Positions 13,055-64,000 are shown, numbered from the stretch's first letter. The stretch: DNA of 64,000 nucleotides from Candidatus Hydrogenedentota bacterium (GCA_035450225.1 DAOTMJ010000007.1:65698-129697); one strand, 5' to 3'. Program-made: numbers and translations. The notes: generated by a model not told the origin, from the letters alone.

Positions 13055-17903
<4,849 letters not shown>

Positions 17904-25302: not shown

Positions 25303-27114
25303 TTACCAACGCCCTTTGTCCAGAAAACGTTCGCGGCATTCCGCCAGAATGCGTCTCGTTTCCTCGCCGGCGCACGGCGGCGCGATGGTATAACCGAACC
25401 GCACATTCCGTCCCCGGGCATACAGGACAAGACAATCCGCGGGATGGGCCTCGCCGAACCGTGGACAATGCCATCCCTGCAGCGGGTTTTCCACGCCATG
25501 CACGTGTTCGACGGATGAGACGCCGAAAGGCCGGATCAGGGTTTCGCCGGAACCGGCCGCGGCCACGTATCCGTCGCCGCGCGGTTCAAGCCACACGTCG
25601 GGATGAAAATGGATAAAACTCTCCGCCTCGCAGGGCCGGGGACCGTCCACGCGGTCGCCTATCAGCCACGCGCCGCCGAAAATGAAATGGATTTCGCGCG
25701 TGTGCCGGAACGGCGCAAAGCCGTCGTGCGACGCAACCAGTCGCCATCCATAAGCGGCCGCGCTCCATTCCCGCGAAAGAAGGCGGTAACGCCGCCCGAT
25801 GCGAAACACATCCCAGCATTCCATGGGTTCGCGCCGATCGACGGCAACCGTGTTATGCGCGCGAACGCTCCGGCAGTAGGCGCGCATGGGATTCGCCTCG
25901 TATACCGGGTTTCCGGAGTCCACGACAATCCGCCGGCCCGCAACGCTCAATTCGTAACTGAACGGGTCGGCATGCGCGTGGCCGGGCTGGTAGGACGGTT
26001 CCACCGGCGCGGCCTTGGCAATCATCCATGCCGCGCCGTGCGCCGTGCGCATTACGTAGAAACCCGACGGTTCGAGCGCGTCGGCGCCGTCGGCGATCGG
26101 CGGCGCGCCGTGCCCGCATATCGCGGATGCCGTCGAATGGAGCGCAAGGGGGGGCATGCACGTGCCGAGCGCCGCGTCGCCGAACAGCGGGATTTCGCCG
26201 TCGGGGTGTGTCACGCGGGGAAGGAAATCCGCCATGCGCGAAATCGCATCGCGCAGAAACGGCGGTTTCATTTGGATCGCGGCATGGGCGATCAGGTTGC
26301 CTTCAAGGACGTGCGCATGATACATCGCGCTGCGTTCGTAGTGCCCGCCGTCGTCCAGTATCTGTTCCGCGAGCGTGCGGGCAAGCAGGCGGAGACCCTT
26401 ATCAATCCAGCGTTGTCCTTCCGGCGACGCGGCCATCAGCGCGCCGGCCACAATCAGGCCCTGCGCGTCGCGCACAAGGTGGTTCGCCTCGACGTCGTAT
26501 TCGATGCTTCGGCTCAGCCAGCGCGCCTGCGCCGCCCAACTGTCCAGGACCGCAGGGTCCGGCGGCCCGAACGCGGCGAAGGCCAGCGCCCAATTCATGA
26601 GCCGCGTGGCGATCGGATAGGCGTCCCACGCATCGCGCGCGCCGGGGGGATGCCGGGCGATCCAATCGTGTATCCAAGTCATGACGCGCCGGGCGTCGTC
26701 GGCTTCGTTTCGTCCGCACGCGCCGACCTGCGCAAGCGGGCGCACGTACTCGAACCAGTGAACCGCGCTTCGTCCCGGTCGAGGGGACTGCGCCAGCCGA
26801 TCCCAATCCCACGCGCCGGTTGCCTCGGCGTTCAGGGCCTTGAGATGGCCCGCGCGCAACGCCGCCAGGATCGTCTCGCCCGCAGGCGCTTTTTCTTCCG
26901 CCGTGCGCAGAAAATCCCGCAGCCGATCCAGGGCGCCCGCGTCGAACGATGCGACCGGCGAGGTTTGCGCCACGCGCGGACGGATGCCTGCCCGGCGTCG
27001 CGCAAGATACCACGCCCGCCATGCCGCCTGTTTCGGCTTGAGCCATCGCACCGTGCGCAAGAATCTGCCGGGGTTGTGCATCGCCTGTCTTTCCGTCATG
27101 GGCCTTTTACGCAT
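25303..27114 (-). CDS. heparinase II/III-like family protein (polysaccharide lyase/epimerase fold)
   Basis: 603 aa; N-terminal alpha/alpha toroid motifs (NWALAFAAFG, DGGHYERSAMYH) and C-terminal Hepar_II_III motif GHAHADPFSYELSVAGRRIVVDSG. Confidence 0.75.
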   Translation of the reverse strand: MRKRPMTERQAMHNPGRFLRTVRWLKPKQAAWRAWYLARRRAGIRPRVAQTSPVASFDAGALDRLRDFLRTAEEKAPAGETILAALRAGHLKALNAEATGAWDWDRLAQSPRPGRSAVHWFEYVRPLAQVGACGRNEADDARRVMTWIHDWIARHPPGARDAWDAYPIATRLMNWALAFAAFGPPDPAVLDSWAAQARWLSRSIEYDVEANHLVRDAQGLIVAGALMAASPEGQRWIDKGLRLLARTLAEQILDDGGHYERSAMYHAHVLEGNLIAHAAIQMKPPFLRDAISRMADFLPRVTHPDGEIPLFGDAALGTCMPPLALHSTASAICGHGAPPIADGADALEPSGFYVMRTAHGAAWMIAKAAPVEPSYQPGHAHADPFSYELSVAGRRIVVDSGNPVYEANPMRAYCRSVRAHNTVAVDRREPMECWDVFRIGRRYRLLSREWSAAAYGWRLVASHDGFAPFRHTREIHFIFGGAWLIGDRVDGPRPCEAESFIHFHPDVWLEPRGDGYVAAAGSGETLIRPFGVSSVEHVHGVENPLQGWHCPRFGEAHPADCLVLYARGRNVRFGYTIAPPCAGEETRRILAECRERFLDKGRW

Positions 27115-27199
27115 TGTAGAGCATTGCGCCGTACCGATTGCACCTTGCCCGCCGCGAGACGGTGGATGAAATGGACGTTATTGGGCATGAAACACGCGA

Positions 27200-28495
27200 T
27201 TACAGACGCTGCATCGTGTAGAGATGCGCGCGCACGCCGGGGCCGGCCTTTCGAATCGCATGCAGATCGCCCAGCGCTTTGGCGCTGCCGCACCGGCCAT
27301 GCAACGGGGACAGGTACAACTGCCCCTCGAAGCCGGTTTCGCCGATCGCCTCGACAATCCCGCGGCAGTCGTATCCATCGGCGGCGATAAAATTTCCCGA
27401 AACGCGCACTTTGCCCCGTTTCCGGTTGATGGTTCCGGCTTTTTCCATGCCCCGCAGCACGTCCGCCGCCGTTTGCCGTTTGCCGAGGCGGGCCAGGGCG
27501 TCGTCCGTTGCGGCTTCCCAGCCCACGTTGACGCCTATGCATTCGAAGGGCAGCGATTCGAGCCTGTCGAAAAAGCCGTCCGGCTGTTCCAGAAAATTCC
27601 GGTTCGTTGCGAACATGAACAGGTTGGATCCGGCATGATACGACGCATCGCAACGAAAAACGTCGAACGCCCGGCGCGCGGCGTATTCAATCCACGGTGA
27701 CGCCATCGCGTCGCATTCGCCGAATACGACCGTGTTGTAATTGTACAAGTCGTCGCCATACAGATGCGCAAGGGCGCCGATCTGCCTGTCAATATCTTCC
27801 CGGCTCCGGACGGCGAACTCCGAATCGCCCCGCACCGAACAGAACTCGCACGTATTCGAACAGCCGTCCATCAGTTTGACAAGTAAAACCTGATAATCAA
27901 CGCCAATCGTTTCCGGCGGCAGAACGTCCATGCGCCCGTGTATTTCGTGGAGCCGGTCCGCGACCGCCTGCAATTGTTCCCGGTCGTGAATGGCGGCTTT
28001 TTCGAGGAAAGCCCACAACCGGCGCGTGCCGGTCTCGCCCGGTTCGCATCCCGGTTCGGGAAGCGCTTCGGGCCGGTTTTCCAGGATGCGCCGGATCGAA
28101 ACAATCAGCCCGTCGAACGCATCGAGCGCGGCGCGAACATGCGATCCCCGCACGCCCTCGTGGTGTTGCAGCATGGGCGGATCACAGCGGCCGTTGATGG
28201 CCCACACGACATCCCCGACAATTTCCGCCGGTTGCGGGAGCCGTCCCGGCGCCCATGCGCGATCATAGTAGATCCAGTCGTTGGCCATCGTGCGCTGAAT
28301 CCAGTCCCAACTGTGCGGCGAGGCGAACCCGTCAATCCGATGGATTCTTCCCTCCAAATCGAAATGGAACGTATAGGCGCCCGACACGATCTGAACGGGC
28401 AAGCCAACCCAGTCCGGCAAGCCGGCCCGGTTGAAATACCGGTCGCCGCCATGATCCAATCGCACCACGATATCTTCGACGCGGAATTCCGCCAT
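27200..28495 (-). CDS. radical SAM domain protein with unrecognised ~200-aa N-terminal domain
   Basis: CX3CX2C motif (DGCSNTCEFCS) near residue 210 followed by a partial-TIM-barrel-length segment; no SPASM/twitch Cys cluster; 85 bp upstream of, and co-oriented with, the heparinase-like gene. Confidence 0.6.
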   Translation of the reverse strand: MAEFRVEDIVVRLDHGGDRYFNRAGLPDWVGLPVQIVSGAYTFHFDLEGRIHRIDGFASPHSWDWIQRTMANDWIYYDRAWAPGRLPQPAEIVGDVVWAINGRCDPPMLQHHEGVRGSHVRAALDAFDGLIVSIRRILENRPEALPEPGCEPGETGTRRLWAFLEKAAIHDREQLQAVADRLHEIHGRMDVLPPETIGVDYQVLLVKLMDGCSNTCEFCSVRGDSEFAVRSREDIDRQIGALAHLYGDDLYNYNTVVFGECDAMASPWIEYAARRAFDVFRCDASYHAGSNLFMFATNRNFLEQPDGFFDRLESLPFECIGVNVGWEAATDDALARLGKRQTAADVLRGMEKAGTINRKRGKVRVSGNFIAADGYDCRGIVEAIGETGFEGQLYLSPLHGRCGSAKALGDLHAIRKAGPGVRAHLYTMQRL

Positions 28496-36789: not shown

Positions 36790-37977
36790 TTGGTTGATGT
36801 TGGCGAGCGTTATTGCAAAAAAAACCAGAAAGTTTGCGATCAAGTGAAAAAAGTAGGCAAACGCAAACCCACTGAAGCGCGGGAAAACGGTCTTCAGTAC
36901 ACAGCCAAGGCTCCTACTTCCCAAAAAACATTTCGTTTCATAGATCTATTTTGCGGGATAGGCGGCTTCCGAATTGCTTTTGAGAAAGCCGGGTGCAAGT
37001 GTTTGTGGTCCTGTGACTGGGACAAACATGCACAAATCACATATGAGGCTAATTTCGGTGAAAAACCCGCAGGGGATATTCATTCCATTGCCGTTGCCGA
37101 TATTCCAAACCATGACATACTATGTGCCGGTTTTCCTTGCCAGCCTTTTAGCATTGCCGGAGTGTCCAAAAAAAACAGTTTGGGGCGAAGGCATGGTTTT
37201 GAAGATGAATATCAAGGAAATTTGTTTTTCTCCATAGCGGAGATTATTGATTATCACAAACCGGCGGCGTTTGTTTTGGAAAATGTAAAAAACCTCAAGA
37301 GTCACGATGGAGGGCGTACTTTTGATGTTATCCATCGTACACTTACCCAGGCGCTTGGTTATACTGTTTACTACAAGGTCATTGATGCCAAGAACGTGGT
37401 TCCACAACATCGTGAACGAGTCTTTTTGGTGGGTTTTCGTCCTTGGTGTTGGTTCGATTTTCCTGAATTTCCCGAAAATGGTCCGGTGCTTGCCTCAATC
37501 CTTGAAACAGAAGTTTCTTCCAATTACACGCTAACGGAACACCTTTGGCAATATCTGCAGGATTATGCGAAGAAGCATCAGGCGGCCGGAAATGGTTTTG
37601 GGTATGGACTGTGCTCGGGCCAAGATGTTGCCAGAACGCTGAGCGCACGTTATTATAAGGATGGGTCGGAAATTCTAATCTCCCAAGGCCAAGACAAGGT
37701 TCCACGGCGATTGACGCCCCGCGAGTGCGCAAGGCTTATGGGATTTCCCGATCATTTCAAAATTCCTGTTTCCGACACGCAGGCATACAAACAATTTGGA
37801 AATTCCGTGGTTGTCCCTGTCGTTGAAAAAATTGCGGCCAATGTTGTAAACGCGCTGACGAGAGGCAGCGACTATCAGCCAGAGATGGTGCTCTGCGCCG
37901 ACAAAAAAACTGCATACGCATTCGGTGGCATTCGCAACAGGAATGGAAAAAACAGGAAAAAGGAAAACTCAAAATGA
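36790..37977 (+). CDS. dcm: DNA (cytosine-5)-methyltransferase (Dcm-type)
   Basis: Motif [12 protein letters not shown], motif [10 protein letters not shown], motif [10 protein letters not shown], motif [15 protein letters not shown], motif [10 protein letters not shown]. Start uncertain: TTG 36790 or in-frame GTG 36844. Confidence 0.9.
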
Positions 37978-38957
37978 GGGGGCCGTCCATTGATCGTTTT
38001 CTCAGAAGCAACGAGTGGGATATGCCCTTTTTCAAGCGACTTGCACATAATGACACCGGAAGAGCGCGCGGGCACCAAGGGGGGATTGTTATACCAAAGG
38101 AGTTAAGAAAGTATTTTCCAAGGCTGGATGAGTCCGGCGTGTCCATGTTTTCCCCCACATGCGATCGCCATTTGCAGGCAGAGTTATATGTTGGAACAAC
38201 ATATGTCGGCATTGTGCGAACAAGATACCAGATCCAGACATGGGGTGGGACTCGCCAGCCGGAATCGCGTATTACCGAAAATCTTGCCGAACTAAGAGGC
38301 CATGCAAATGCTGGCGATTTGCTCATTTTCCAAAGACGGGCCGATTCTACGGATCGTTTTCGTCTGTTGCTTCTTAAACAGGGGACAAACGCATACGATC
38401 TTGTCGGCAATCTGGTGGCATCGCGACGTTGGGGGCCTCTTTATTCCCAAGATCTTCCTGTTTCACAAGAGGATTTACAAGTTGCCCATTCAAACATCGA
38501 GACGCTTTCGCGTTCCGAGTTTACATTGCTTGCCCCAAGAATCCAACGCGTTGAAGCCCGTCACACGCGCATAGCCCGGAGCGCCGCATTTAGGGACCGG
38601 ATCAGGATGGAATACGGGTATAAATGCTGTGTGACAGGGATCAATCTTATGACCCCAACGCAGATGCACGAGGTTGAATCGGCGCATGTGGTTCCAATAA
38701 GCGAAGGCGGCACCGATGACATACGCAACGGTATTGCCCTGATTCAAACCTTGCATTGGGCTTTTGACCGGGGTTTGTTTGGGATTTCTTCCCGTCGCCA
38801 AGTCTACATTCCCAACCGGATTCTGGAAATGCCGGAAAACGACTTTCTCCGGCAGTTTCATGGCAAATCCATTTCCGAGGCAACGACACAGGATTTTCAC
38901 GTTCACAAAGATGCTTTGGAGTGGCACCTCGAACATCGTGTCAGGCAGTGGGAATAG
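37974..38957 (+). CDS. putative Type II restriction endonuclease: EcoRII-N-like effector DNA-binding domain fused to HNH nuclease
   Basis: ATG overlaps dcm stop (ATGA). N-terminus [30 protein letters not shown] and ...[11 protein letters not shown]...GDLLIFQ resemble the EcoRII N-terminal domain (recalled from memory); C-terminus CCVTGI...[37 protein letters not shown] is an HNH motif. Confidence 0.7.
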
Positions 38958-58134: not shown

Positions 58135-58866
58135 ATGCGCATTGCCATTATAGCCGATATTCATGCCAATCTGGAGGCGGCCTCGGCGGTTTTGGCCGAA
58201 ATTGACAGGCTGAACCCCGACAAGACCGTCTGCTTGGGCGACCTTGCCGGCTACAATTCCCAGCCGAACGAGGTCATCGAACTGATTCGCGCGCGGGAAA
58301 TTCCGACGCTGATGGGCAATCACGACGCCGCCGCGTGCGGAAACGAGGATACATGGTTCTTTCGGTCCTCGGCCAAGAAAGCCATTGACTGGCAGGCCGG
58401 CCAACTCCGCGAAGACAACCGCGAATGGCTCAAGGCCCTGCCCGTGCAACTGGCCTTCGACCGGGTTTGTCTGGGCGTGCACGGTTCGCCGGGCAACCGC
58501 GATGACTACATTGTGGATTGGCTGGACGCCATGCGCCAGTTGTCCCATCTGAAGAATCCCGACACCATGGTCTGTTTCTTCGGCCATAGCCATCGGGCGT
58601 CGTTCTTTTCGGAGCGCGGCGGCCATTTTGCCACGACCGCCGGAACCGTCCATGAATTACGGCCCCGAAACCGATACTTCATCAATCCCGGCGCCGTCGG
58701 CCAGCCCCGCGACCGGGATCCCCGCGCCGCTTTCGGACTGTTCGACAGCGATCGCATGACCTTCGAGTTCTGCCGTGTCGAATACGACGTGGCCGCCGCC
58801 GCGCAAAAAAACATCAAAGCGGGGCTTCCCTCGGATTTGGCCGCCCGTCTTATCAAAGGCGTCTGA
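58135..58866 (+). CDS. metallophosphoesterase (calcineurin-like, YfcE/MJ0936-type)
   Basis: MRIAIIADIHAN ... CLGDLAGY ... GNHD ... GHSH motifs. Confidence 0.8.
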   Translation: MRIAIIADIHANLEAASAVLAEIDRLNPDKTVCLGDLAGYNSQPNEVIELIRAREIPTLMGNHDAAACGNEDTWFFRSSAKKAIDWQAGQLREDNREWLKALPVQLAFDRVCLGVHGSPGNRDDYIVDWLDAMRQLSHLKNPDTMVCFFGHSHRASFFSERGGHFATTAGTVHELRPRNRYFINPGAVGQPRDRDPRAAFGLFDSDRMTFEFCRVEYDVAAAAQKNIKAGLPSDLAARLIKGV

Positions 58867-59124
58867 TTGTATTGAACGCCAAACGATTTTGCCGCAGGCG
58901 GCCACCGCGTTCCGGCGGGAATTTTATCGGCCTGTTTCTTCCGGAAAGTCGTCTGAACCATTCGTCCGGCATCGCTGCATGAGCCGGAGTGCTGTTTCAC
59001 GCTCATTGAGCATTCGACGGTCGCAATGAGCGCCGGAATGTCCTTCTTGCAGATGGCAAAGACCTGCGCCCAACGTGTAAGACACGAATTATTCGCGTCG
59101 GCAGAAAGACGAATACCCCCGCTG

Positions 59125-59610
59125 TTATGACAGCGTTTCGCCGAGGATCTTGTCCGCCTGTTTCGCGCGAAACGCATTGAGTTTTTCGGATAATTCCGGT
59201 CGGGTGAGCGCGAGGATGGCGATGGCGAGCAGGGCGGCATTGACGGCGCCGGCCTTGCCGACGGCCAGCGTGCCGACGGGGATGCCCGCGGGCATCTGGA
59301 CCATCGAGAGAAGCGAGTCGAGCCCCTGCAATGCGCTGGCCATGGGCACGCCGAGGACGGGCTTGATCGTGCGCGACGCCATGACGCCGGCCAGGTGCGC
59401 CGCGCCGCCCGCCGCGCCGATGAACACTTCGCAGCCGCGGGCGGTCGCATCGGCCATGTAGGCTTCCAAAGCGTCGGGCGTGCGGTGGGCCGACAGCACG
59501 CGGGCCTCGTTCGGGACACCAAATTCGGACAGTGTCTCCGCGGCATGGCGCATGACGTCCCAGTCGGATTTGCTGCCCATGATAACGGCTACAAGAAGGT
59601 CGTTGCTCAT
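59125..59610 (-). CDS. purE: N5-carboxyaminoimidazole ribonucleotide mutase
   Basis: 161 aa; VAVIMGSKSDWDVM and FIGAAGGAAHLAGVMA PurE signatures. Confidence 0.9.
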   Translation of the reverse strand: MSNDLLVAVIMGSKSDWDVMRHAAETLSEFGVPNEARVLSAHRTPDALEAYMADATARGCEVFIGAAGGAAHLAGVMASRTIKPVLGVPMASALQGLDSLLSMVQMPAGIPVGTLAVGKAGAVNAALLAIAILALTRPELSEKLNAFRAKQADKILGETLS

Positions 59611-59658
59611 GTTGATGCGGGCCTCCTTTATGTGAAGTAGTCAGTAGTCAGTAGTATA

Positions 59659-60699
59659 TTATGTCCGCTTGAACGCCGACAATGTTTTCCATGCGCAACG
59701 TTCCCATGTGTATTCCGAGGCGGCCTGTTTTCCGTATCGGACGCGCGCCTGTCGTTGTTCCGGTTGTTCGTCGAGCGCCCAGCGGATGCCGGCAATGATG
59801 GAATGGGTGCTTTCCGGGTTGAAATAGATGGGTGTGTCGCCGGCCACCTCGGCGATGCCGCCGGTGCGCGACGTGACGACCGGCGCGCCCGACCGCATCG
59901 CCTCGAGCACGGTCACGCCGCTGCCTTCGTATAGGGACGGCTGAATGAACACGTCACAATGCTGATACAACCCGGCGAGGTGCGTCGCGGGGCACGATTC
60001 GATGCGCATGACGCGGGGACCCCAATCGGCCGGCTCGGCCTCGGCGGGTTGTCCCACGACGACCAGCCCGTGCGGAAAATCGTCTTTTAGAATGTCGAAG
60101 ACTTCACGGAGCCGCTTGAGATTGCGATAGGCGCGCGTCGCGCCGACAACCAGGAAGTAGGGCTTTTGAATGAAGCAGGTCTGCGGCTTTGCGAACACTT
60201 CCGAGACGCCCAGCGGCGCGACCACCACCTTGTTCAGCGGAATACCCAGCAGTTCGAGGTACTTCCGCTGAACGAATCCGGAAGGCGCGACGATGGCGGC
60301 GGCGTTTTCGCAGACACGTTTCACCGTTTTGATCCGGACGGCCCGCTTGCGCGCGGATTCCTCCGCGTCCTCTTCCCATGCGTAGAGGTCGAGCGCGAAC
60401 ACGACAATCGGGATGCTGCTTTTGGCGGGGGCCGATTCAAGCGGCGTGAACAAGACATCGGCATTTCGCTGTCGGGCGGCGCGTTCGACGCGGCTTTCAA
60501 GACCCGAGAAAAGTCCCGCGCCGGCAAGGCATTCGCGATCCCAGCCGTCGAAACTGTCGTGGTTGTCCGGATCCGTAATCAACACGAAACGCGTGTCCGG
60601 CTGGACGTCGCGCATCGTGGCGAGCACGTTGCGGATATAGTGTTCCGCGCCGCCGCCGCGGCCCGGCTTCAATCCCGCCAAGTTGACACCGACCATCAT
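59659..60699 (-). CDS. glycosyltransferase family 4 (group 1)
   Basis: 346 aa; C-terminal GT4 motif VFIQPSLYEGSGVTVLEAMRSGAPVVTSRTGGIAEV. Confidence 0.85.
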   Translation of the reverse strand: MMVGVNLAGLKPGRGGGAEHYIRNVLATMRDVQPDTRFVLITDPDNHDSFDGWDRECLAGAGLFSGLESRVERAARQRNADVLFTPLESAPAKSSIPIVVFALDLYAWEEDAEESARKRAVRIKTVKRVCENAAAIVAPSGFVQRKYLELLGIPLNKVVVAPLGVSEVFAKPQTCFIQKPYFLVVGATRAYRNLKRLREVFDILKDDFPHGLVVVGQPAEAEPADWGPRVMRIESCPATHLAGLYQHCDVFIQPSLYEGSGVTVLEAMRSGAPVVTSRTGGIAEVAGDTPIYFNPESTHSIIAGIRWALDEQPEQRQARVRYGKQAASEYTWERCAWKTLSAFKRT

Positions 60700-61048
60700 G
60701 GGCTATAAGGCCACCGACCAAAGGTTTTGGGACAAAGGGTTATGGATCTTGAGCATACCGGGATCTTGCCTGTTTTTCCCGGTGTTGAACAAACACAAGG
60801 AATTCCTTGAACCTGAAACGCGGGACGGACTGGCCCGTCGGTCTTTTTCGGAAATGCGCCAAGCCGGCGGTTGGACCGGCTGGACAGCCTGTCCCACGCT
60901 TTCGTGCCTATTTCAGTCATGTCGCGACTCCCTGAACAATGCTTCAATGCGAGTCCGTTATCCATTCCAACGAAAAACGGCTTTTTTATGAATTTTCAAG
61001 TTGAGAGAGCGTCCAAGAATTCGGCACTCCTAACTTCCAGATCCCAAC

Positions 61049-61441
61049 TCATTCCACATATCCGAGATCGGCCAGTCGTTTCCGAATCGCTTCTTCTTCT
61101 TCGGGCGTATACTGCACGCCATCCATGCGCAAGAGATCTCGCTCGGCCAACTCATCCAGTATTTTCTCGGCCGCAAAATCCGGCGTGTCGTGCTCGTCAA
61201 CCTCCATTTCGAGCACGTTGCCTTCGGGGCGGATATCCGGCGCCGTCACAACGGCGAACACGCCATTGCGGCTGAGTAACCCGCACACGAACGCCGCGCG
61301 CTTCACGCCGCCCAGACGCTTGATCATGTCCTCGTCAATCCGCTCGGCGTTGCGTCCCAATTCGATTAGGCGAAACACGAGCGCCTGGGCGGTGGCCCCG
61401 GCCTCGGTTCCTCTCAGGCAAATGGTTGCGCCTTTTTCCAT
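61049..61441 (-). CDS. APS-kinase-like protein with degenerate P-loop (probably catalytically inactive)
   Basis: Aligns by eye to CysC: ICLRGTEAGATAQALVFRLIELG vs [27 protein letters not shown] and IDEDMIKRLGG vs LDGDNVRHGL, but the GxxGxGK(S/T) lysine/serine are replaced (GTEAGAT); only 130 aa. Confidence 0.5.
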   Translation of the reverse strand: MEKGATICLRGTEAGATAQALVFRLIELGRNAERIDEDMIKRLGGVKRAAFVCGLLSRNGVFAVVTAPDIRPEGNVLEMEVDEHDTPDFAAEKILDELAERDLLRMDGVQYTPEEEEAIRKRLADLGYVE

Positions 61442-61444
61442 GGC

Positions 61445-62836
61445 TTACCCAATAACCTTTCCCTGCATGTCTTCCGGCACGGCCACGCCGGACAATTCGA
61501 GGATTGTCGGGGCCACGTCCATCAATTGCAGTCCCTTCAATTCCTCACCCTTCCGGCCCATTCCATCGTCCATAATAAAAATGCCGTCGAAATCGTGGTT
61601 CGCATCGTCCGGCCCCGTGTCGTTTTCAAATGTATAGATACCGTCGAACCCGACCGCGCCGACCGACCGCCAGTCCAGTCCGCCGAAATAGACGAACAAG
61701 TCGGGCGGCACGCCGTTGACTTCCCTGTACAGGTCGCGGGGCCTCAATGCGCGGTTGCCGAGCAGCCGTCCGTCGGGGCCAGGCATTGCCTCGATGGCCG
61801 CGATCAGTTCATTCAGGCATACGTCGTATTCCGCCGCGGGGATGACGCCCTGTGGTTCGCGGCCTTCCACGTTGAGAAAGACACGCCCGTAATACCCGCC
61901 CGAGGCCCATGCCCGCGTATGCGGCCAGTCTATTCTACAGTCTTCGATGCGCGTTCGGCCATTCGGTGGTTCGGCCAGACCCAGCCAGCCGTTTTCGATG
62001 AGCCACTGGTTGATGCATATACCGCCCTGCATGGCCTTCGCGCCATGGTCCGACACCACCATCACGGCGGTTTCGTCGCCGGCCAGCGCCAGCAATTCGC
62101 CGAGACGCGCATCCAGCGCCTGGTAGTAATCGCGAAAGACCTGCGCATATGGATTGCCCGGCTCGAATTTTGGATGCCGCGGGTCACAGTATTTCCAGAA
62201 TGCGTGATGCAGGCGATCCACGCCCATTTCGACCATCATGAAAAAGTCCCACGGTTTGTCCGCCATCAGAAAGCGCGCCGCGTCGAACCGGTTGTGCATC
62301 AACGCGAAGATGCGATCGCGCAGGGCCGCCTTTTCGTTTGTCCGGAAGTCCTTGACGTCGAGCAGGTACGACCCTACGGCTTGTTCCAGTTCGTCCTTGA
62401 GCGTCTTCGGATAGGTGTAATCGGCCCGTGTGTCCGGGGTGAGAAAATCGGCGACGAGCCAGCCGTTCACCGGCCTTACCGGATACGTTTGCGGCACGCC
62501 TAGTACGACGACCTTCCGTCCCTTGCGCGAGAGAATATCCCACACGCGCTTGGCGCGGATGGAGGAAGCATTTGCGGTAACCATGCCTTCGTAGGAATAG
62601 TCGCGGCGGTTTCGGAACCCGTAACAGCCCAGCACGCCCGGATCTTTGCCCGAGGTCATGCACGCCCACGCCGGCACGGTGATCGGCGGATCGCAACTGC
62701 GCAGACGGCCCCAACAGCCTTTCGCGGCGAGCCGTTGCAGATTGGGCAGGTCGAACCGATCCGGACCGAAGACGAATCGAGGCGCCGCGCAGTCCAGTCC
62801 GACGACGAGAATCCGTTTTGCCTTGCGGCCGGCCAT
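61445..62836 (-). CDS. alkaline-phosphatase-superfamily type I phosphodiesterase / nucleotide pyrophosphatase family protein
   Basis: 463 aa; N-terminal metal-site pattern VGLDCAAP and PITVPAWACMTSG (Thr nucleophile context), later DHG (VVSDHGA); stop overlaps the start region of the downstream APS-kinase-like gene by spacing of 3 nt and its own start abuts sat. Confidence 0.65.
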   Translation of the reverse strand: MAGRKAKRILVVGLDCAAPRFVFGPDRFDLPNLQRLAAKGCWGRLRSCDPPITVPAWACMTSGKDPGVLGCYGFRNRRDYSYEGMVTANASSIRAKRVWDILSRKGRKVVVLGVPQTYPVRPVNGWLVADFLTPDTRADYTYPKTLKDELEQAVGSYLLDVKDFRTNEKAALRDRIFALMHNRFDAARFLMADKPWDFFMMVEMGVDRLHHAFWKYCDPRHPKFEPGNPYAQVFRDYYQALDARLGELLALAGDETAVMVVSDHGAKAMQGGICINQWLIENGWLGLAEPPNGRTRIEDCRIDWPHTRAWASGGYYGRVFLNVEGREPQGVIPAAEYDVCLNELIAAIEAMPGPDGRLLGNRALRPRDLYREVNGVPPDLFVYFGGLDWRSVGAVGFDGIYTFENDTGPDDANHDFDGIFIMDDGMGRKGEELKGLQLMDVAPTILELSGVAVPEDMQGKVIG

Positions 62837-63993
62837 CAGTCGCCCGCGCCCTGCGCCCAGGCGATCAGAATCTTCGCGACTTCGGGGCGCGTGAACTCGA
62901 CCGGCGGCATTTCACCGGCCTTGAGCATTTCCCGGACCTTCGTTCCGCTCAGGAACACGTGGTGGCTCTTGTCGTGCGGGCACGTTTTGATGGAAGCCAT
63001 GTTGCCGCAGGCCTTGCAGAAGAATGAATGCTCGAAAAAGAGCGGCGTGATCCCGATTTCCGCCGGATCGAATTCATCGAAAATGTAATGCGCGTCATAA
63101 GATCCATAATAGTTCCCGACGCCCGCATGATCGCGGCCCACAATGAAATGCGTGCAGCCGTAATTCTTGCGGATAATCGCGTGCATGATCGCCTCGCGCG
63201 GACCGGCGTAGCGCATGTTGACCGGCATCAGCGACAACATGGCATGGTTTTTGGGATAGTAGATGTCGAGAATGGTCGTGTAACACTGCATCCGCACGTC
63301 GCCGGGAATGTCGTCGCTCTTTGTCGTGCCCATGAGCGGATGCAGCAGAAGGCCGTCGCAGATTTCCATCGCGACTTTTTGGAGATACTCATGCGCGCGA
63401 TGGACGGGATTGCGCGTCTGAAACGCGACAATCCGCTTCCAGCCGCGTTCCTCGAAGGCGGCGCGTGTTTCGCGGGGCGTAAGGTTGTATTCTTGGAATT
63501 CGATTTCCCGCGCCTTGAGCACGTCGAGTTCACCCGCAAGGAAAATGGGGCCGAGCGACATCGTGTACGCCACGCCCGGATGGTTCATGTCCGTCGTGCG
63601 GTAGACCTTTTCGCAGATATACGCGTGGTCCATCGAAAACTTTTCCGCGAGATGCAGAATGGCGGCCACGTCGCCCATGTCGTCCACGATGGCCGCATCG
63701 CCGCCAATCACCAGCCCGTCCGCGGTGGCCTGATCGACCGCCAGCAGGATCGGAATCGTCCACGGCAGGCCGTCGCGCAGATACATCGTGTCGAGGACGC
63801 GGCGGGTTTCCGCTTCGCCCATGAAGCCCGTCAGTGGGCTGAACATGCCTTTCGCGATGCAGTCAATATCGAACGCCGTGTAGGCGTCCACGACAATGCG
63901 CGGCAGTGCCGCCGCGCGTTTTGACGCCTCGGCCAGCGCGTCGCCCTTTAACAACCGATCAATCAATTGACCGCCATGTGGTGCTATGGACAT
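62836..63993 (-). CDS. sat: sulfate adenylyltransferase (ATP sulfurylase)
   Basis: 385 aa; QTRNPVHRAHE and GRDHAGV motifs; start at 63993 close to the window end. Confidence 0.9.
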   Translation of the reverse strand: MSIAPHGGQLIDRLLKGDALAEASKRAAALPRIVVDAYTAFDIDCIAKGMFSPLTGFMGEAETRRVLDTMYLRDGLPWTIPILLAVDQATADGLVIGGDAAIVDDMGDVAAILHLAEKFSMDHAYICEKVYRTTDMNHPGVAYTMSLGPIFLAGELDVLKAREIEFQEYNLTPRETRAAFEERGWKRIVAFQTRNPVHRAHEYLQKVAMEICDGLLLHPLMGTTKSDDIPGDVRMQCYTTILDIYYPKNHAMLSLMPVNMRYAGPREAIMHAIIRKNYGCTHFIVGRDHAGVGNYYGSYDAHYIFDEFDPAEIGITPLFFEHSFFCKACGNMASIKTCPHDKSHHVFLSGTKVREMLKAGEMPPVEFTRPEVAKILIAWAQGAGD

Positions 63994-64000
63994 TCCCGAT

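Follow-up and report, generated by a model that had tools for sequence, protein, structure and literature searches.

Why should a bacterium keep, next to its ATP sulfurylase gene, an adenosine 5'-phosphosulfate (APS) kinase that appears unable to work? The question is raised by a stretch of 64,000 nucleotides from a Candidatus Hydrogenedentota bacterium (GCA_035450225.1 DAOTMJ010000007.1:65698-129697), which we call the window. Its positions 61049-63993 hold three co-directional open reading frames (ORFs) on the minus strand, in the order sat (ATP sulfurylase), a gene of the alkaline phosphatase (AlkP) superfamily and a gene for a protein of 130 aa, as an earlier sequence-only reading had described. 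Dead APS-kinase domains are already familiar as fused regulatory domains. To our knowledge, all characterized biological sulfation and most sulfate assimilation proceed through Sat and then through either APS kinase or APS reductase. According to our analysis, the 130-aa protein is almost certainly a catalytically dead descendant of an APS kinase, encoded in a phylum-wide cassette of four genes that is completed by a glycosyltransferase gene. A stand-alone, lid-less and tail-bearing dead kinase in such a cassette is not described in Pfam, NCBIfam, PADLOC or the literature that we searched, where we likewise found no description of the cassette or of the tail; the view that a stand-alone form is unusual was thus borne out, with no paper found and no Pfam or NCBIfam model covering the protein.

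The ancestry of the 130-aa protein (61049-61441, minus strand) is hidden from routine annotation. It has no Pfam match, PF01583 included, and all sources name it 'hypothetical protein'. Searches against Pfam, NCBIfam and, with the single sequence, the PDB returned sub-threshold hints of APS kinase only, among them NF002059 with 20.7 bits against a cutoff of 244 and a span of just 29 residues; family profiles and structure were needed to detect the relationship. When an alignment of 41 family members was compared by hhalign with active APS kinases that bear the same C-terminal tail, the two matched end to end over 130 columns (99.6%, E 1.6e-24), so that the similarity to CysC-type kinases expected by the sequence-only reading was detected, and a single active kinase (P0086) was still matched at 98.1% (E 8.9e-14). 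An AlphaFold2 model built on the 41-member alignment reached a pLDDT of 90.2 and a pTM of 0.76. In a Foldseek search of the PDB with this model, APS kinases or APS-kinase domains took all of the first 27 places, led by 8a8h_A (E 1.1e-5, TMq 0.62).

What is missing from the protein are the parts that make an APS kinase work. The Walker A motif GxxxxGK[ST] has been lost outright and not merely substituted: the loop (GTEAGAT, residues 11-17, 61391-61411, minus strand; family alignment and hhalign) is three residues shorter and lacks the Lys and the Ser/Thr, and G11 is the sole invariant residue of the former P-loop among the 41 family members. The degeneracy noted earlier therefore goes deeper than had been claimed. 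By hhalign, the APS-binding segment (LGFSxxDRxxNxRR) is cut by 5+8 residues (13 aa), and a further internal deletion of about 55 residues has removed a helix, strand 4 and the lid, leaving a β-sheet of four strands in the model versus five in APS kinase. Strands 1-3, the last strand and the C-terminal helix are retained, followed by a tail of 20 aa. The description of the protein as the N-terminal half of a kinase without its lid was accordingly right about the lid and wrong about the half, as the deletions are internal and the C-terminal elements are kept. With these losses the protein is predicted to be incapable of kinase activity and would form no 3'-phosphoadenosine 5'-phosphosulfate (PAPS).

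An exhaustive profile search of 1.84 billion representative sequences recovered 176 relatives, none of them fused to Sat. At 90% identity the family falls into about 85 clusters, and almost every one with a named source stems from metagenome-assembled genomes (MAGs) of Hydrogenedentes. Sorted by length, nearly all of the 176 bear the tail. Among the relatives under 150 aa, about 100 in number, none has Walker A, while those of 154-263 aa are mixed, with about 20 intact and about 15 degenerate motifs. Together they form a degeneration series, tail-bearing throughout, from active kinases of about 200 aa through P-loop-dead forms of about 180 aa and the 130-aa form to proteins of about 105 aa. 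One could read the window ORF as a decaying pseudogene or a mis-called frame, given the absence of any Pfam or NCBIfam match, the 'hypothetical protein' label everywhere and the loss of the catalytic parts. The ORF is, however, intact and of similar length in 29 fetched GTDB loci (one representative genome per species) and in dozens of metagenome contigs at 38-81% identity, its family alignment has 21 invariant columns, its operon position is fixed, its model is confident, and its codon-position GC (0.70/0.39/0.70) is of the coding type seen in other called genes of the window. Conservation across the 29 GTDB and 42 metagenome loci shows that the gene is under purifying selection as a protein, and it effectively refutes the pseudogene reading, which we consider to have a negligible chance of being correct.

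The origin of this protein can be traced to active kinases of other phyla. A profile made from the Walker A-intact relatives retrieves thousands of APS kinases, and among the best 118 Walker A is present in 118/118 and the tail in 117/118. Where a source is named, they come from Poribacteria, Krumholzibacteriota, Eisenbacteria, Deltaproteobacteria and unclassified bacteria. Of the six genomic contexts examined (loci are cited by L numbers), five have the active kinase gene directly after an AlkP gene of about 460 codons or divergently beside it. The order is (RHH-like)-sat-AlkP-APS kinase in L039 and L042, where RHH stands for ribbon-helix-helix, and AlkP-APS kinase in L038 and L040; in L037 AlkP is divergent from sat-APS kinase, and in the poribacterial L041 the kinase stands alone. 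The AlkP proteins of these clusters are orthologous to that of the window (39-49% identity), and a GT4 ortholog was found beside the active kinase in 0/6 loci. The active enzymes of about 200 aa thus share with the 130-aa protein the end-to-end alignment, the tail and the slot after an orthologous AlkP gene; they differ in keeping GxxxxGK[ST] and the lid, and often occur with RHH-tail proteins and envelope-facing AlkP paralogs. Because it occupies the same operon slot as the active kinases (as in L039 and L042), the 130-aa gene is a degenerate CysC that fills the CysC place of an older sat-AlkP-cysC module and derives from active tail-bearing kinases, in agreement with the earlier suggestion that it stands there instead of CysC.

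One of these clusters mirrors the situation in the window. In L039 (6561-7940) the nucleophile and two metal ligands are gone from the AlkP ortholog between sat and the active kinase (T53M, H211R, D263E); this is a single case, the orthologs in L038, L040 and L042 being intact. The reciprocal catalytic losses, of the kinase in the window and of AlkP in L039, suggest structural roles for both proteins. Beside the active module we also observed an accessory gene set (L038 67-5647, minus strand; L039 8694-13253; L040 8709-15355) that encodes three AlkP paralogs with a Ser nucleophile (about 430, 710 and 650 aa), a second RHH-tail protein as well as a membrane protein (about 272 aa) that matches no Pfam family. 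The paralogs of about 710 aa and the 666-aa paralog of L038 have signal/transmembrane or lipoprotein N-termini.

In order to follow the cassette within Hydrogenedentota, a tblastn survey of GTDB species representatives was performed, yielding 30 non-redundant Hydrogenedentota-type loci, and another 42 loci came from scanning metagenomes with the short forms (about 105 aa). Among informative GTDB loci, AlkP immediately precedes the small gene in 29/29 and sat lies upstream of AlkP in 27/28. GT4 follows the small gene in 25/27 GTDB loci and in all informative metagenome loci, about 60/64 informative cases overall, while the genes outside the four-gene block vary from locus to locus. Identity to the window proteins in the GTDB survey is 68-91% for Sat, 63-86% for AlkP, 34-68% for the small protein and 29-83% for GT4. 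The small gene occurs without AlkP in 11 loci, ten of which have the order sat-small-GT4 (L046, L047, L049, L053-L056, L060, L067 and L069); L043 consists of small-GT4 only and lacks both AlkP and an upstream sat. The small proteins of the AlkP-less loci are mutually diverse and mostly about 103-109 aa long. Conservation of the three-gene block, an expectation of the sequence-only reading, was therefore found, with the amendment that the unit has four genes including GT4 and that the phosphodiesterase is dispensable. The cassette was also seen on a contig binned as 'Candidatus Bathyarchaeia archaeon' (DATKVG010000064.1, L006/L031; Sat 82% identical), beside multihaem cytochrome genes, and on MAGs labelled 'uncultured Nitrospiraceae' (L010-L012, L015, L022 and L032). 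These are probably mis-binned or mislabelled Hydrogenedentota-like contigs and not true transfers.

The first gene of the cassette (sat, 62836-63993, minus strand, 385 aa) encodes what is, judged from its translation, a canonical ATP sulfurylase of the homo-oligomeric type. It matches PF01747 (2.5e-99, 331 bits) and the PUA-like domain PUA_2, exceeds the curated cutoffs of NF003166 (537 bits, cutoff 387) and TIGR00339 (425 bits, cutoff 323), and contains the catalytic motifs QTRNPVHRAH and GRDHAG. Its stop codon overlaps the AlkP start by the one nucleotide that had been claimed (cTGATGg, in which TGA and ATG share a base), and the ATG of the 130-aa gene follows the AlkP stop after 3 nt (TAAgccATG). 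The window ends 7 nt upstream of sat. Beyond this right end lies a PaaK-like gene (phenylacetate-CoA ligase, acyl-CoA ligase; L001 6065-7357), which ends 92 nt upstream of sat and is not conserved in the other loci.

The second gene (61445-62836, minus strand) encodes a protein of 463 aa with a Thr nucleophile that resembles nucleotide pyrophosphatases/phosphodiesterases (NPP) and the phosphonoacetate hydrolase PhnA. Its match to PF01663, type I phosphodiesterase/nucleotide pyrophosphatase (1.6e-39, 136.9 bits, cutoff 23), agrees with the family assignment made in the sequence-only reading. No solved homolog is detectable by sequence in the PDB, in single-sequence or profile search. The AlphaFold2 model (pLDDT 94.3) finds Xanthomonas (Xac) NPP, phosphonoacetate hydrolase and ENPP1/3/5/6 as its best Foldseek matches, with 12-17% identity and TM 0.54-0.60. 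The catalytic set of the AlkP superfamily (D15, T53, D207, H211, D263, H264, D410 and H414) is invariant in 34 orthologs, as are many Arg residues. From score, ligand set and modelled fold the enzyme is predicted to belong to the NPP, or type I phosphodiesterase, branch. It shares with Xanthomonas NPP (2gsn/7mw8) and PhnA (3szy/1ei6) the superfamily core, the Thr nucleophile and the two-metal ligands, whereas it exceeds them in length by about 80 aa, lacks an N-terminus resembling a signal peptide and carries a family-specific motif, [ST]-x-[PV]-x-W, which in the window reads PPITVPAW and includes T53. A formylglycine-dependent sulfatase (PF00884) was considered and rejected, given T-V-P-A-W in place of C/S-x-P-x-R and a score of 12.1 bits against a cutoff of 25. 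Homologs number in the thousands and are annotated merely as 'AlkP superfamily phosphohydrolase/phosphomutase'. Possible roles are an APS-consuming transfer, a pyrophosphate-type 'pull' on Sat, a phosphatase acting on 3'-phosphoadenosine-5'-phosphate (PAP) or a Thr-type sulfatase; plain hydrolysis of APS or PAPS, the speculative role named in the sequence-only reading, would make the operon futile.

The fourth gene (59659-60699, minus strand) encodes a GT4 glycosyltransferase of the GT-B fold with 346 aa. Both GT-B halves are recognized above threshold (PF00534, 2.6e-22, 79.6 bits; PF13692, 69.5 bits; PF13439, 34.1 bits), all matches to specific NCBIfam subfamilies stay far under their cutoffs, and the closest PDB sequences are MshA, sucrose-phosphate synthase and GlgM. 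It is separated from the small gene by a spacer of 349 nt (60700-61048), compared with about 14-70 nt in most other loci; the spacer has no Rfam match, its promoter- and terminator-like sites do not exceed shuffled expectation, and an Rfam scan of 58500-64000 gave zero matches. A match to PF20706 ('GT4-conflict') prompted the idea of a defence system, which was dropped because none of the four proteins had a PADLOC match at E <= 0.01.

If the 130-aa protein is no longer an enzyme, its conserved residues should tell what it is kept for. Conservation in the family peaks at two places, neither of them tied to catalysis: the motif DTPDFAAEK at the junction of the last strand and the C-terminal helix (residues 85-93, 61163-61189, minus strand), in which D85, T86, P87, F89, A90, A91, E92 and K93 are invariant in 41 sequences, and the acidic/amphipathic tail of 20 residues, YTPEEEEAIRKRLADLGYVE (residues 111-130, 61052-61111, minus strand). 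The DTP position presumably corresponds to the adenine-ring contact site of P-loop kinases. Thr86 is retained in 52/52 loci with AlkP and in 3/11 loci without it, where the DTPDF Thr is usually replaced (Fisher p ~4e-8, uncorrected for phylogeny). By this comparison of sequences, the constraint on DTPDFAAEK depends on the presence of AlkP.

The tail follows the pattern Y-T-P-E-E-E-E-x-I-R-x-R-L-x-x-L-G-Y-I-E, with Y111, E116, R122, L123, L126, G127 and Y128 invariant, and is conserved in AlkP-bearing and AlkP-less loci alike. Its sequence is similar to that of the C-terminal helix of the kinase itself (consensus ETVEESVNKIIRTLELLGYI vs EYSPEEEEKIKKRLKDLGYI; BLOSUM62 28 vs -18, partly a product of anchoring on the LGYI motif) and may be a tandem duplication of it. 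In the window only the 130-aa protein carries the tail. In the active-kinase clusters the same tail is found on RHH-like proteins of 61-74 aa (L038 6170-6394; L039 5145-5366 and 12226-12417; L040 14214-14399; L042 5203-5427), for example ...EEIAAIKKRLKNLGYL, whose RHH_1 matches are sub-threshold (E 0.0014-0.03), and on a PF00884 sulfatase that ends in ...MDRLRALGYIE (L039 13308-15266, minus strand; pattern ..EE..I..RL..LGY[IL]). Since a short C-terminal helix is common to unrelated proteins of one neighbourhood, the tail looks, on sequence grounds, like a portable motif by which these proteins dock on a common partner. Binding to AlkP is weakened as an explanation by the conservation of the tail where AlkP is absent, and binding to GT4 by its presence on active kinases that have no such GT4. 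As the tail persists without either, elimination favours Sat, a second tail or some protein encoded elsewhere as its partner.

We posit that the 130-aa pseudoenzyme survives as a non-catalytic adaptor or scaffold of a Sat/AlkP assembly, a role that we hold to be slightly more likely than not. Its DTPDF surface would be tied to the NPP-like enzyme, and its tail would dock on a partner that every architecture includes, for which ATP sulfurylase or a second copy of the 130-aa protein is the most plausible candidate. With the kinase dead, the cassette would stop at APS and itself make no PAPS, and the NPP-like enzyme may be an accessory step that handles APS or pyrophosphate. It would be accessory rather than a core step because cassettes without AlkP exist. 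The activated sulfate might serve an envelope glycoconjugate. This use is suggested by the near-obligate linkage to GT4 and by frequent GT-C/PMT_2, GT2 and Wzx neighbours: a PMT_2/ArnT-like GT-C enzyme follows GT4 in L046, L047 and L069, PMT_2 lies near the L039 cluster, and GT2 with a Wzx flippase (L055), Wzx with Wzy (L007) and Wzx with a glycosyltransferase (L039) occur nearby, a set of neighbours that suggests envelope glycans. The four-gene cassette thus suggests an uncharacterized use of activated sulfate without PAPS being made within the cassette. As an overall explanation, we consider the reading of the dead kinase as a non-catalytic adaptor, serving a module for sulfate activation that is linked to envelope-glycan genes, to be evenly balanced between right and wrong, and we hold glycan sulfation as the purpose of the cassette to be tentative and rather doubtful.

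Several observations weigh against this explanation. The cassette has no sulfotransferase gene, and no precedent for an AlkP-fold or APS-dependent sulfotransferase was found in the literature searched. Some lineages do without the NPP-like enzyme, as the AlkP-less cassettes show, so that a universal pathway could not rely on it as its only consumer of APS; these cassettes equally weaken the idea of AlkP as a universal partner. GT4 is not close downstream in L014, L016, L021 and L027, the Thr86/AlkP co-variation and the synteny statistics ignore shared ancestry, and the partner of the tail was derived by elimination alone. A Hydrogenedentota MAG has been reported with (near-)complete assimilatory sulfate reduction and with sulfotransferase genes (PMC10866078), and a second, active cysC may possibly exist elsewhere in the genome. 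In the 64-kb window, tblastn and Pfam searches found no active cysC and no cysH, sir, apr, cysQ or sulfotransferase gene, and there are no sulfur genes on the contig within 10 kb beyond it. An active cysC is likewise absent from every fetched Hydrogenedentota locus.

A more ambitious version of the adaptor idea has the adaptor hand APS to the NPP-like enzyme, with a Thr-linked intermediate, or to a GT4-dependent step, giving a sulfated envelope glycoconjugate by PAPS-independent sulfation, with the tail as a docking code through which kinase, regulator and sulfatase would all be brought to a single hub; we judge this improbable. The cassette could instead belong to ordinary assimilation, the NPP-like enzyme hydrolysing pyrophosphate or another phosphoanhydride by-product and so driving the unfavourable Sat reaction. 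The dead kinase would then be no more than a structural relic of a complex once formed by Sat, hydrolase and kinase, APS would go to a reductase elsewhere, and the GT4 linkage would be incidental. Such a 'pull' is exactly the purpose served by the fusions of ATP sulfurylase to inorganic pyrophosphatase in stramenopiles and haptophytes (PMC2275785). Together with the Sat-APS kinase fusions/PAPS synthases (Aquifex aeolicus 2gks, human PAPSS1), these fusions couple Sat to a product-removing enzyme and offer a precedent for a Sat-X-kinase assembly; in the cassette, by contrast, the genes are separate, the kinase no longer works and the place of X is taken by an NPP-like AlkP enzyme, not by a family I/II pyrophosphatase. 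The translational coupling of sat and AlkP, the retention of AlkP beside active and dead kinases alike, and the many invariant Arg residues, which fit a polyanionic substrate, are all in line with a pull, and the loss of AlkP in some lineages and its degeneration in L039 would fit a task that a housekeeping pyrophosphatase could take over. The nearest folds, however, are diesterases or C-P hydrolases (NPP, PhnA) and not pyrophosphatases, GT4 stays beside the small gene despite changing flanks, and neither cysH nor sir was found in the window or the 10 kb beyond, and we consider this explanation unlikely.

It has also been proposed, in the sequence-only reading, that the small protein resembles the allosteric PAPS-binding domain of fungal ATP sulfurylases; as a regulatory subunit it would bind PAPS, APS or AMP and control Sat. 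The precedent is real, since the fungal enzyme has a non-catalytic regulatory APS-kinase domain (PMC2275785), and the C-terminal domain of Penicillium chrysogenum ATP sulfurylase (1i2d, 1m8p), likewise a kinase-inactive APS-kinase fold associated with Sat, is among the Foldseek matches. The position of sat would suit regulation too, upstream in 27/28 GTDB loci and directly adjacent in 10/11 AlkP-less loci, as would the place of the invariant DTP motif at the presumed adenine-contact site. The fungal domain, however, is fused to Sat, of full length and binds PAPS, whereas the 130-aa protein is encoded separately with AlkP between it and sat, has lost the P-loop, the APS/PAPS-binding segment, strand 4 and the lid, and has gained the tail and DTPDFAAEK. 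The loss of the binding site makes a fungal-style PAPS sensor unlikely; the forms of about 105 aa lack still more of the core, and the conserved residues cluster in the tail and the surface motif and not in a pocket-forming set. The allosteric analogy found no support, and we think regulation of this kind very improbable. AlkP might finally be a salvage partner, as a CysQ-like PAP phosphatase or a Thr-type sulfatase feeding Sat, with an active CysC elsewhere. A PAP phosphatase would fit its ancestral place, with sat on one side and an active cysC on the other, its N- and C-terminal parts have weak matches to choline-sulfatase, arylsulfatase and SGSH_C, and many sulfatases and the degradation of sulfated polysaccharides have been reported for Hydrogenedentota MAGs (PMC10866078). 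Against this stand the missing formylglycine motif, sulfatase models far under their cutoffs and the lack of an active cysC in the window or any fetched Hydrogenedentota locus, and there is no obvious reason for a PAP phosphatase, conserved at 63-86% identity, to stay with Sat after the death of the kinase; the chance of a salvage function appears slim to us.

Elsewhere in the window, a heparinase II/III-like lyase (PF07940/PF16889, with weak HepC similarity) adjoins a radical SAM protein of 431 aa at 25303-28495, and a GH2 enzyme of 1333 aa lies at 13055-17056; these genes fit a polysaccharide-degrading lifestyle. At 36790-38957 the genes for a Dcm-type C5 cytosine methylase and, behind it, an HNH/EcoRII-N endonuclease have a GC content at third codon positions of 0.44-0.51 vs about 0.75 elsewhere and probably form a horizontally acquired restriction-modification island.

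For Hydrogenedentota, these results mean that a whole uncultured phylum keeps Sat tightly linked to a non-working kinase, an uncharacterized NPP-like enzyme and a glycosyltransferase. The family offers a natural series from enzyme to pseudoenzyme, in which an active kinase becomes P-loop-dead, then lid-less and finally a minimal form of about 105 aa. The short C-terminal motif common to the kinase, to DNA-binding proteins and to a sulfatase looks like a docking code in sulfur-metabolism clusters, and the COG3379-type AlkP enzymes of about 460 aa, with thousands of homologs and no known function, are flagged as candidates for sulfur pathways. The cassette is also a small, expressible gene set in which sulfation at the level of APS, independent of PAPS, or a new 'pull' on Sat could be sought. 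A PAPS-independent route, if true, would be a new sulfotransferase chemistry in the alkaline phosphatase fold with APS as the donor.

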